From sequence record PQ666539: DNA of 64,000 bases; one strand, 5' to 3'. Both the position numbers and the translations under genes were made by a program. The stretch's first letter is position 1. Each line of letters opens with the position of its first letter. The notes under the pieces were generated by a model, which saw only the letters and a program-made list of their open reading frames with translations, was not told the origin of the DNA and searched no databases. Shown piece by piece: positions 18,764 through 20,532 of the stretch. The stretch comes from Shigella phage sb1.

Positions 18764-20532
18764 AAAAGCCACAAGAAATGCAAACGATGCGTAGAAAAGT
18801 TATTTCAGATAATAAACCAACACAGGAAGCGGATAAATCCGCTTCCAACACTTTATCTGGGCTTAATGACATTTCTACAAAATTGGATGATGCTCAAGCT
18901 GCTTCTGAATTAATAGCTCAAACCGTTGAAGAAAAATCGAATGAAATAATTTGAGCAATTGACAACGTAGAAAACGCAGTGAGCGATACTACTGCTGGTT
19001 CTGAGTTAATTGCTGAAACTGTCGAAATTGGCAACAATATTAATAAAGAAATTGGTGAATCGCTCAGGAGCAAATTAGATAAATTAACGAGTTTACTAGA
19101 GCAAAAAATTCAAACAGCCGGAATTCAACAAACAGGAACCAGCTTAGCTGTAGTCGAAAGTGCTATTCCCGTTAAATTTGTCGAGGATGATACAGCTGAA
19201 TTCGTTGGTCCATTATTATCAGCTCCTGAAGCAGTTAATAATGATCCTGACGCTGATTTTTTCCCTGCTCCTCAACCAGTTGAACCTAAGCGAGAGTCAC
19301 CGGAAGAAAAACAGAAAAAAGACGCATTTAACTTAAAATTATCTCCCGCTTTAGATAAATTAACAAAGACTGTTGATTTTGGATTTAAGAAATCTATTTC
19401 AATTACTGATAAAATATCGAGCATGTTATTTAAGTATACTGTCAGTGCTGCTATTGAAGCTGCTAAAATGACTGCAATGATATTGGCTGTTGTTGTTGGA
19501 ATAGATCTGCTGATGGTTCATTTCAAATATTGGTCAGATAAATTTTCGCAGGCTTGGGATTTGTTTAGTACAGACTTTAAAACTTTCTCTAGTGAAACGG
19601 GAACATGGGGTCCTTTATTACAGAGCATCTTTAGTTCTATTGATGAAATTAAAAAATTCTGGGAAGAGGGAGATTGGGGCGGTTTGACGGTAGCTATTGT
19701 AGAAGGGCTTGGAAAGGTTATTTATAATTTAGGAGAACTTATTCAGCTTGGAATGGCTAAATTATCTGCGGCAATTCTTCGAGTTATTCCTGGCATGAAA
19801 GACACTGCTGACGAAGTAGAAGGAAGAGCGCTGGAAAATTTCCAAAATTCTACTGGAGCATCTCTCAATAAAGAAGACCAGGAAAAAGTTGCGAATTATC
19901 AAGATAAACGAATGAATGGAGACCTTGTTCCGATAGCAGAAGGACTAGACAAAATTGCGAACTGGAAAACTCGTGCATCTAACTGGATTCGTGGTGTTGA
20001 TAATAAAGAAGCATTGACAACTGATGAAGAACGCGCAGCAGAAGAAGAAAAATTAAAGCAGCTTTCACCTGAAGAAAGAAAAAATGCTTTAATTAAAGCT
20101 AATGAAGCCCGTGCCGCGATGATTCGTTTTGAAAAATACGCTGATTCGGCTGATATGAGTAAAGACTCAACGGTTAAATCAGTTGAAGCTGCCTATGAAG
20201 ACCTTAAAAAACGAATGGATGACCCGGATTTAAATAATTCACCGGCAGTTAAAAAAGAACTTGCTGATAGATTTTCTAAAATTGATGCTACTTATCAAGA
20301 GCTCAAGAAAAATCAGCCTAATGCCAAACCTCAAACTTCTGCTAAATCGCCAGAAGCAAAACAAGTCCAGGTAATAGAAAAGAACAAAGCACAGCGAGCT
20401 CCTGTTCAACAAGCATCTCCTTCGATCAATAATACTAATAATGTTATTAAGAAAAATACTGTCGTTCATAATATGACACCCGTAACGAGCACGACTGCTC
20501 CGGGTGTATTTGATGCGACTGGAGTTAATTAA
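18760..20532 (+). pseudogene. 29: tail length tape-measure / baseplate hub protein gp29, interrupted by in-frame TGA at 18952..18954
   Basis: 591 codons in one frame match T4 gp29 (590 aa); Gly position replaced by TGA. Confidence 0.9.

Follow-up and report, generated by a model that had tools for sequence, protein, structure and literature searches.

Classical nonsense mutants of T4 gene 29 are conditional-lethal; they carry single selected mutations that are propagated on suppressor hosts. In genetic code 25, TGA is read as glycine, and phages with recoded stop codons exist. Deficiency of MutM and MutY results in a G:C>T:A mutator spectrum, with unrepaired 8-oxoguanine (8-oxoG) pairing with A. 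The corresponding C>A/G>T changes are also documented as an artefact of library preparation arising from oxidised guanine (Costello et al. 2013, PMC3616734). In that published case a CCG>CAG context, low allele fractions and a read orientation bias with G>T in read 1 and C>A in read 2 were described (PMC3616734).

The 64,000-nucleotide stretch of DNA analysed here, called the window in the following, belongs to a T4-like phage (Tequatrovirus) and is collinear with Shigella phage pSs-1, positions 1-64000 corresponding approximately to 100986-164985 of NC_025829.1. Similar to the library artefact, the window exhibits an excess that is confined to G:C>T:A and unrelated to gene function, and events at C followed by G are enriched, about 1.8-fold in CCG and GCG. 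In contrast to the artefact, the changes, known from the consensus alone, are fixed in that consensus at about 1.2% of G:C pairs and exhibit a weak context bias. As in the T4 gene 29 nonsense mutants, one base change generates an early stop that would abolish hub and tape-measure function; unlike these mutants, the window is not T4 and has 20 genes interrupted by a total of 29 stops, of three kinds. With code 25 and recoded phages it shares an in-frame TGA where homologues have Gly, whereas TGA still terminates genes in the window, TAA and TAG occur internally as well, and host and lineage use the standard code. Substitution class and presumed chemistry are the same as in a MutM/MutY mutator. 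However, mutations of a lineage are filtered by selection, whereas the changes in the window are unfiltered.

Gene 29 and its in-frame TGA

Positions 18952-18954 on the plus strand read TGA, which the translation places in frame as codon 65 of gene 29. As related phages have GGA (Gly) here, this corresponds to G>T at 18952. The frame starts with ATG at 18760, proceeds to ...KSNEII, meets the TGA at 18952-18954, continues with AIDNVENAVSDTTAGS... and ends with TAA at 20530-20532, giving a length of 590 codons plus stop. The locus comprises the following features:

18760-20532, plus strand: gene 29, baseplate hub subunit / tail tape measure, interrupted at codon 65 (translation, PF25671, identity to T4 gp29, neighbouring genes)
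18760-18954, plus strand: N-terminal gene 29 fragment, 64 codons, mechanical ORF (ORF list)
18979-20532, plus strand: C-terminal gene 29 part, mechanical ORF of 517 codons with GTG start (ORF list)
18761-18763, plus strand: gene 28 terminator TGA, which overlaps the start of gene 29 (ATGA, 18760-18763)

The sequence-only reading had assigned the gene to the tape measure or hub gene 29, and this assignment is well founded. With TGA read as Gly, PF25671 (T4 tape measure) is matched over positions 1-590 of 590 with 1318.7 bits, and the product aligns to T4 gp29 without gaps at 95% amino-acid identity. The gene is located between genes 28 and 48, likewise in T4, pSs-1 and a48, and the order 51-27-28-29-48-54 is common to the window, T4, pSs-1, a48 and Ec_YwIITB1. 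An exact-protein look-up of the intact gp54 of the window gave no match. The interruption itself, proposed in the same reading, is seen in the translation: the sequence as given contains no uninterrupted full-length gene 29 frame, as TGA stands at codon 65. The glycine expected for T4 could be verified on the reference alignment, where codon 65 is GGA in T4 and in the four close relatives a48, pSs-1, sb2 and Ec_YwIITB1 (five of five aligned). It had also been stated that the frame continues for 517 more codons. The frame does continue, but 525 sense codons follow the TGA; the value of 517 belongs to the ORF starting at GTG 18979. We found no support for this ORF (18979-20532) as a separate gene, and in the translation it shares the frame with the N-terminal fragment.

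In principle, the TGA could be a genuine opal mutation in a viable phage, tolerated by UGA read-through or by a suppressor, with few copies of gp29 needed per virion. Of the stop codons, UGA is read through most readily in E. coli, gp29 is present in low copy number, and a stable hairpin directly downstream of the TGA would fit read-through. This interrupted 21-bp hairpin at 18954-19014 (plus strand) in the gene 29 mRNA, directly 3' of codon 65, has a folding energy of -24 kcal/mol (z = -3.7 compared to shuffles). It is sequence-invariant in T4, a48, pSs-1, sb2 and Ec_YwIITB1 and shows no covariation; since these relatives have GGA at codon 65, the hairpin is not tied to the TGA. No Rfam recoding, SECIS or read-through element was found above noise in 18600-19300, and no tRNA gene, suppressor included, in the 64-kb window, the T4 tRNA cluster region falling outside it. 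A 36-nt query spanning the codon-65 site gave no exact match among 419 related phage records; none of them carries the T, which also speaks against a genuine opal mutation. Of the 419 records, 235 matched at 95-99% identity, and the best among those listed reached 97.2%, with a single mismatch over the 36 nt. Exact scans of viral, metagenome and genome contigs (29-mer, and 47-mer with N at the site) revealed no sequence that differs from the window only by GGA at this codon. Most weight is carried by the 28 other stops described below. They are of all three kinds and include TAA in gp23 (about 930 copies), gp22, gp27, gp48 and gp32, and suppression could not rescue all of them. We therefore consider a genuine, tolerated opal mutation very unlikely.

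Gene 29 contains eight window-private G:C>T:A changes, all of which are nonsynonymous, compared to 10 of 42 among its other private changes. Besides the TGA these are seven missense changes on the plus strand, spanning 18833-20267:

18833, plus strand: A25D
19177, plus strand: V140F
19667, plus strand: A303E
19720, plus strand: L321I
19928, plus strand: G390V
20094, plus strand: M445I
20267, plus strand: A503D

A stop would not be expected in the essential gene 29 of a real genome. Under the process that acts across the whole window, in contrast, the 86 nonsense-capable sites of gene 29 give an expectation of 1.0 stop, with one seen and P(>=1) = 0.63. With a probability of about 85%, the T at 18952 is thus one expected event of a window-wide, unselected G:C>T:A damage or error process and does not reflect gene 29 biology. 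The notion of a single gene-specific event, as implied by the sequence-only reading, has to be replaced accordingly: this process has left 29 premature stops, distributed over 20 genes, and the TGA is one of them.

Premature stops and substitution spectrum of the window

When all coding sequences of pSs-1 were mapped to the window, 20 genes proved to contain premature in-frame stops, 29 in total. Apart from the one in gene 29, 28 stops in 19 genes are spread over 5097-56287. Three further small pSs-1 ORFs were left out of the count; their mapped lengths are not multiples of three, so that the apparent stops in them are attributable to an edge indel or annotation difference. The stops outside gene 29, all from the pSs-1 mapping, are located as follows:

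5097-5099, plus strand: TAA in gp22 (TCA>TAA)
5367-5369, plus strand: TAA in gp22 (GAA>TAA)
6672-6674, plus strand: TAA in the major capsid gene gp23 (TTA>TAA), T>A, the sole stop outside G:C>T:A
14130-14132, plus strand: TAA in uvsW.1 (GAA>TAA)
15196-15198, minus strand: TAA in uvsY (GAA>TAA)
16664-16666, plus strand: TAA in gp51 (GAA>TAA)
17689-17691, plus strand: TGA in gp27 (GGA>TGA)
18130-18132, plus strand: TAA in gp27 (GAA>TAA)
20739-20741, plus strand: TAA in gp48 (TAC>TAA)
22641-22643, minus strand: TAA in a 96-aa ORF downstream of alt (TCA>TAA)
24504-24506, minus strand: TAG in alt paralogue 1 (GAG>TAG)
30391-30393, minus strand: TAA in a 71-aa hypothetical gene (TAC>TAA)
34742-34744, minus strand: TAA in a 78-aa hypothetical gene (GAA>TAA)
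38072-38074, minus strand: TAA in an Rz-like spanin gene (GAA>TAA)
38251-38253, minus strand: TAG in alc (GAG>TAG)
38437-38439, minus strand: TAG in alc (GAG>TAG)
38720-38722, minus strand: TAA at the last sense codon of rnlA (TAC>TAA)
39293-39295, minus strand: TAA in rnlA (GAA>TAA)
39446-39448, minus strand: TGA in rnlA (GGA>TGA)
43452-43457, minus strand: two adjacent TAA in nrdA (GAA GAA>TAA TAA)
48265-48267, minus strand: TAA in gp32 (GAA>TAA)
51772-51774, plus strand: TAA in gp34 (TCA>TAA)
51841-51843, plus strand: TAA in gp34 (GAA>TAA)
52702-52704, plus strand: TAA in gp34 (GAA>TAA)
54211-54213, plus strand: TAA in gp34 (GAG>TAA, two changes)
55164-55166, plus strand: TAA in gp35 (GAA>TAA)
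56285-56287, plus strand: TAA in gp36 (TCA>TAA)

Gene by gene, there are two stops in gp22, one each in gp23, uvsW.1, uvsY and gp51, two in gp27 and one each in gp29 and gp48. Alt paralogue 1 has one, alc two, rnlA three, nrdA two (adjacent) and gp32 one; gp34 has four, gp35 and gp36 one each, and four small ORFs one each. Many of the affected genes are essential, namely gp22, gp23, gp27, gp29, gp48, gp51, gp32, gp34 and nrdA. On the coding strand, 28 of the 29 stops arose via G>T or C>A (GAA>TAA, GAG>TAG, GGA>TGA, TCA>TAA, TAC>TAA) and none via a transition such as CAA>TAA or TGG>TGA.

The alignment to relatives, in which all three internal TGA correspond to Gly and all three internal TAG to Glu, would be in line with a reassignment of TGA to Gly of the code 25 type or with the lifestyle of a recoded phage. 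This regularity is, however, a product of first-position G>T changes (GGA>TGA, GAG>TAG, GAA>TAA). The internal TAA codons align with four amino acids (Glu, Ser, Tyr and Leu), and as all three stop codons occur internally, the pattern is not that of a single reassigned codon. Furthermore, TGA, TAA and TAG still end genes where they do so in the relatives; for TGA this holds for many genes, including gene 28 at 18761-18763, a functioning terminator 190 nt upstream of the codon-65 TGA. The relatives are about 96% identical and are E. coli and Shigella phages on the standard code. The assignment of TAA to four amino acids, together with the conserved use of TGA as terminator, excludes recoding with near certainty.

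For the substitution spectrum, changes from the pSs-1 base to the window base were counted across the 64 kb:

C>A 214, reverse A>C 65
G>T 220, reverse T>G 97
A>G 443, reverse G>A 422
C>T 448, reverse T>C 444
A>T 156, reverse T>A 125
C>G 18, reverse G>C 33

Only G:C>T:A is unbalanced, with 434 changes compared to 162 in the reverse direction, and the remaining reciprocal classes are balanced. The imbalance is directed towards the window. In a three-way comparison over 1-20 kb the window has 91 private G:C>T:A changes, compared to 14 for pSs-1 and 22 for sb2; polarisation relied on pSs-1, sb2, a48 and T4 only. The window-private coding G:C>T:A changes of this comparison comprise 12 synonymous, 62 missense and 7 stop changes. 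Window-private transitions are 78-90% synonymous and resemble those of pSs-1 and sb2. Even the closest phage records share only about 96-97% identity with the window. The underlying genome is that of an ordinary pSs-1-like Tequatrovirus under selection, on which one aberrant substitution class is overlaid.

A few changes in start and stop codons were noted in addition. At 50662-50664, gp34, which encodes the proximal subunit of the long tail fibre, has CTG as start codon instead of the ATG of pSs-1, an A>C change outside the main class. Since both this change and the TTA>TAA of gp23 are deleterious and fall outside G:C>T:A, a minor second component of unselected change or error is indicated. 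The start of the 78-aa hypothetical gene at 34805-34807 (minus strand) reads ATT instead of ATG; this start loss corresponds to C>A on the plus strand and belongs to the G:C>T:A class. At 17108-17113 the gp51 stop is changed from TAA to CAA (T>C), extending the frame by one codon; the stop then reached, at 17111-17113, overlaps the region of the gp27 start. The change may be natural variation. At 62930-62950 (minus strand) four differences from pSs-1 are clustered where two small ORFs meet. The stop of the upstream ORF reads AGA and the start of the downstream ORF AAG, the ORFs listed there being 62918-63268 and 62481-62915.

Selection, distribution and context of the excess

The coding G:C>T:A changes are distributed over codon positions 1, 2 and 3 as 137, 119 and 152, and comprise 96 synonymous, 282 missense and 30 stop changes. 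The reverse class was taken as estimate of the natural background and subtracted, leaving an excess of about 255 events, or 1.17% per coding G/C site (about 1.2%). Neutral expectations were calculated by mutating every coding G or C. Over codon positions 1, 2 and 3 the excess amounts to 107, 92 and 56, compared to 113.5, 84 and 57.5 expected neutrally (chi-square p = 0.56), while the natural, third-position-biased profile is rejected for it with p of about 1e-139. The excess comprises 12 synonymous, 213 missense and 30 stop changes, compared to neutral values of 23, 202 and 29.9. For the window as a whole, 29.9 premature stops are expected neutrally and 29 are seen. The excess carries no trace of purifying selection and is independent of gene function.

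The events are evenly spread along the window, with 13-42 per 4 kb including the natural background, and the strands are equally affected (220 G>T, 214 C>A). No strand runs were observed (runs test z = -1.25), and at distances above 50 nt the same-strand fraction is about 0.5. Both results indicate independent events, and bursts of errors at read level or on a single strand were rejected as a source. The sequence context is nearly flat: CCG is enriched 1.77-fold and GCG 1.87-fold, and most events occurred in other contexts. No frameshifts were found in coding sequence, coding indels being multiples of three or paired alignment artefacts.

Many genes in the window are broken, and a decaying, pseudogenised T4-like copy, e.g. 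a remnant in another replicon, would share this property. Such decay predicts all mutation classes together with indels and deletions, whereas only G:C>T:A is in excess here and frameshifts are absent. Across the 64 kb the genes retain their order and full length, deletions and an excess of nonsynonymous transitions were not seen, and the other substitution classes are under strong purifying selection. A pseudogenised copy is hence highly improbable.

Origin of the changes and consequences for annotation

A phage with the stops of the window in its scaffold, capsid, hub, tape-measure, tube-cap, ssDNA-binding and tail-fibre genes is non-viable and forms no plaques. Since this set of stops is not viable and the excess shows no purifying selection, the changes postdate the last selection. 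In the proposed sequence of events, the G:C>T:A process would have altered about 1.2% of G:C pairs after the last replication under selection. The chemistry would be oxidation of template guanine, with 8-oxoG pairing with A when copied, or alternatively G-to-T base miscalls, and the changes might have been fixed into the consensus in DNA handling, amplification, sequencing, assembly or later sequence processing. The physical cause may accordingly be oxidation, miscalling or computational alteration. Fixation at about 1.2% exceeds the level that the library artefact normally reaches and points to a template of one or few molecules, very low coverage, miscalling of G as T or alteration after assembly. 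Two observations speak against oxidation during library preparation: low allele fractions are normal there, so that the changes should not enter a well-covered consensus, and shearing-induced oxidation is reported to be dominated by CCG, a far stronger context preference than that of the window. Miscalling by nanopore sequencing or at modified cytosines was judged unlikely, with frameshift indels absent and k-mer specificity almost nil.

It is also conceivable that the sequenced DNA molecules truly carried the changes or lesions and that the sequence is faithful to a non-viable or unselected molecule. Routes to such DNA would be single-virion or very low-input amplification of oxidised DNA, an oxidising G-specific mutagen or a mutM/mutY-type host. 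The spectrum, one class and strand-symmetric, is as expected of template 8-oxoG or MutM/MutY deficiency, and the total absence of selection fits damage that is fixed in one copying step. With a single template, a level of about 1.2% fixed changes would also be reached more easily than with a deep library. From the sequence alone, however, a template lesion cannot be separated from a later error. A mutator host cannot by itself account for the changes, because a replicating lineage cannot accumulate 29 nonsense codons in essential genes. Overall we regard faithfully sequenced lesions as unlikely. The more specific form, in which the sequence captures one or very few packaged genomes with heavy guanine oxidation that was fixed by low-input amplification or caused by an oxidising treatment, is improbable as well and slightly more so; a variant in which only the TGA of gene 29 is real, and leaky, is even less likely.

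Under the preferred explanation, a damage or error process acting across the window, codon 65 of the true gene 29 almost certainly reads GGA (Gly65) as in the relatives, and sequencing reads would be expected to show GGA. The TGA is not a real feature of gene 29, and its value is chiefly that of a quality flag. As a product of a window-wide process, it is uninformative about gene 29 in particular; the biology of the gene in tail-length determination and hub assembly is unaffected. Since about 1.2% of G:C pairs are changed, findings that are based on premature stops, lost starts or odd amino-acid replacements at a G or C in the window should be discounted. If this sequence were annotated automatically, at least 20 genes would come out split or truncated. 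If the DNA did physically carry the changes, the window would provide a clean neutral, selection-free 8-oxoG spectrum on DNA with glucosyl-hydroxymethylcytosine, which would be of modest interest.

A search of the literature for T4-like genomes with many premature stops revealed nothing relevant. The closest public relative, Ec_YwIITB1 (PQ356294.1), is itself annotated with a split gp23, a split hoc and a shortened frd (5857-7418 and 10405-11834); broken genes are therefore not peculiar to the window among recently deposited T4-like genomes. As a further observation, two tandem full-length alt (ADP-ribosyltransferase) paralogues are located at 22980-27095 (minus strand) and are also present in pSs-1 and Ec_YwIITB1, whereas T4 has alt together with the short remnants alt.-1 and alt.-2.
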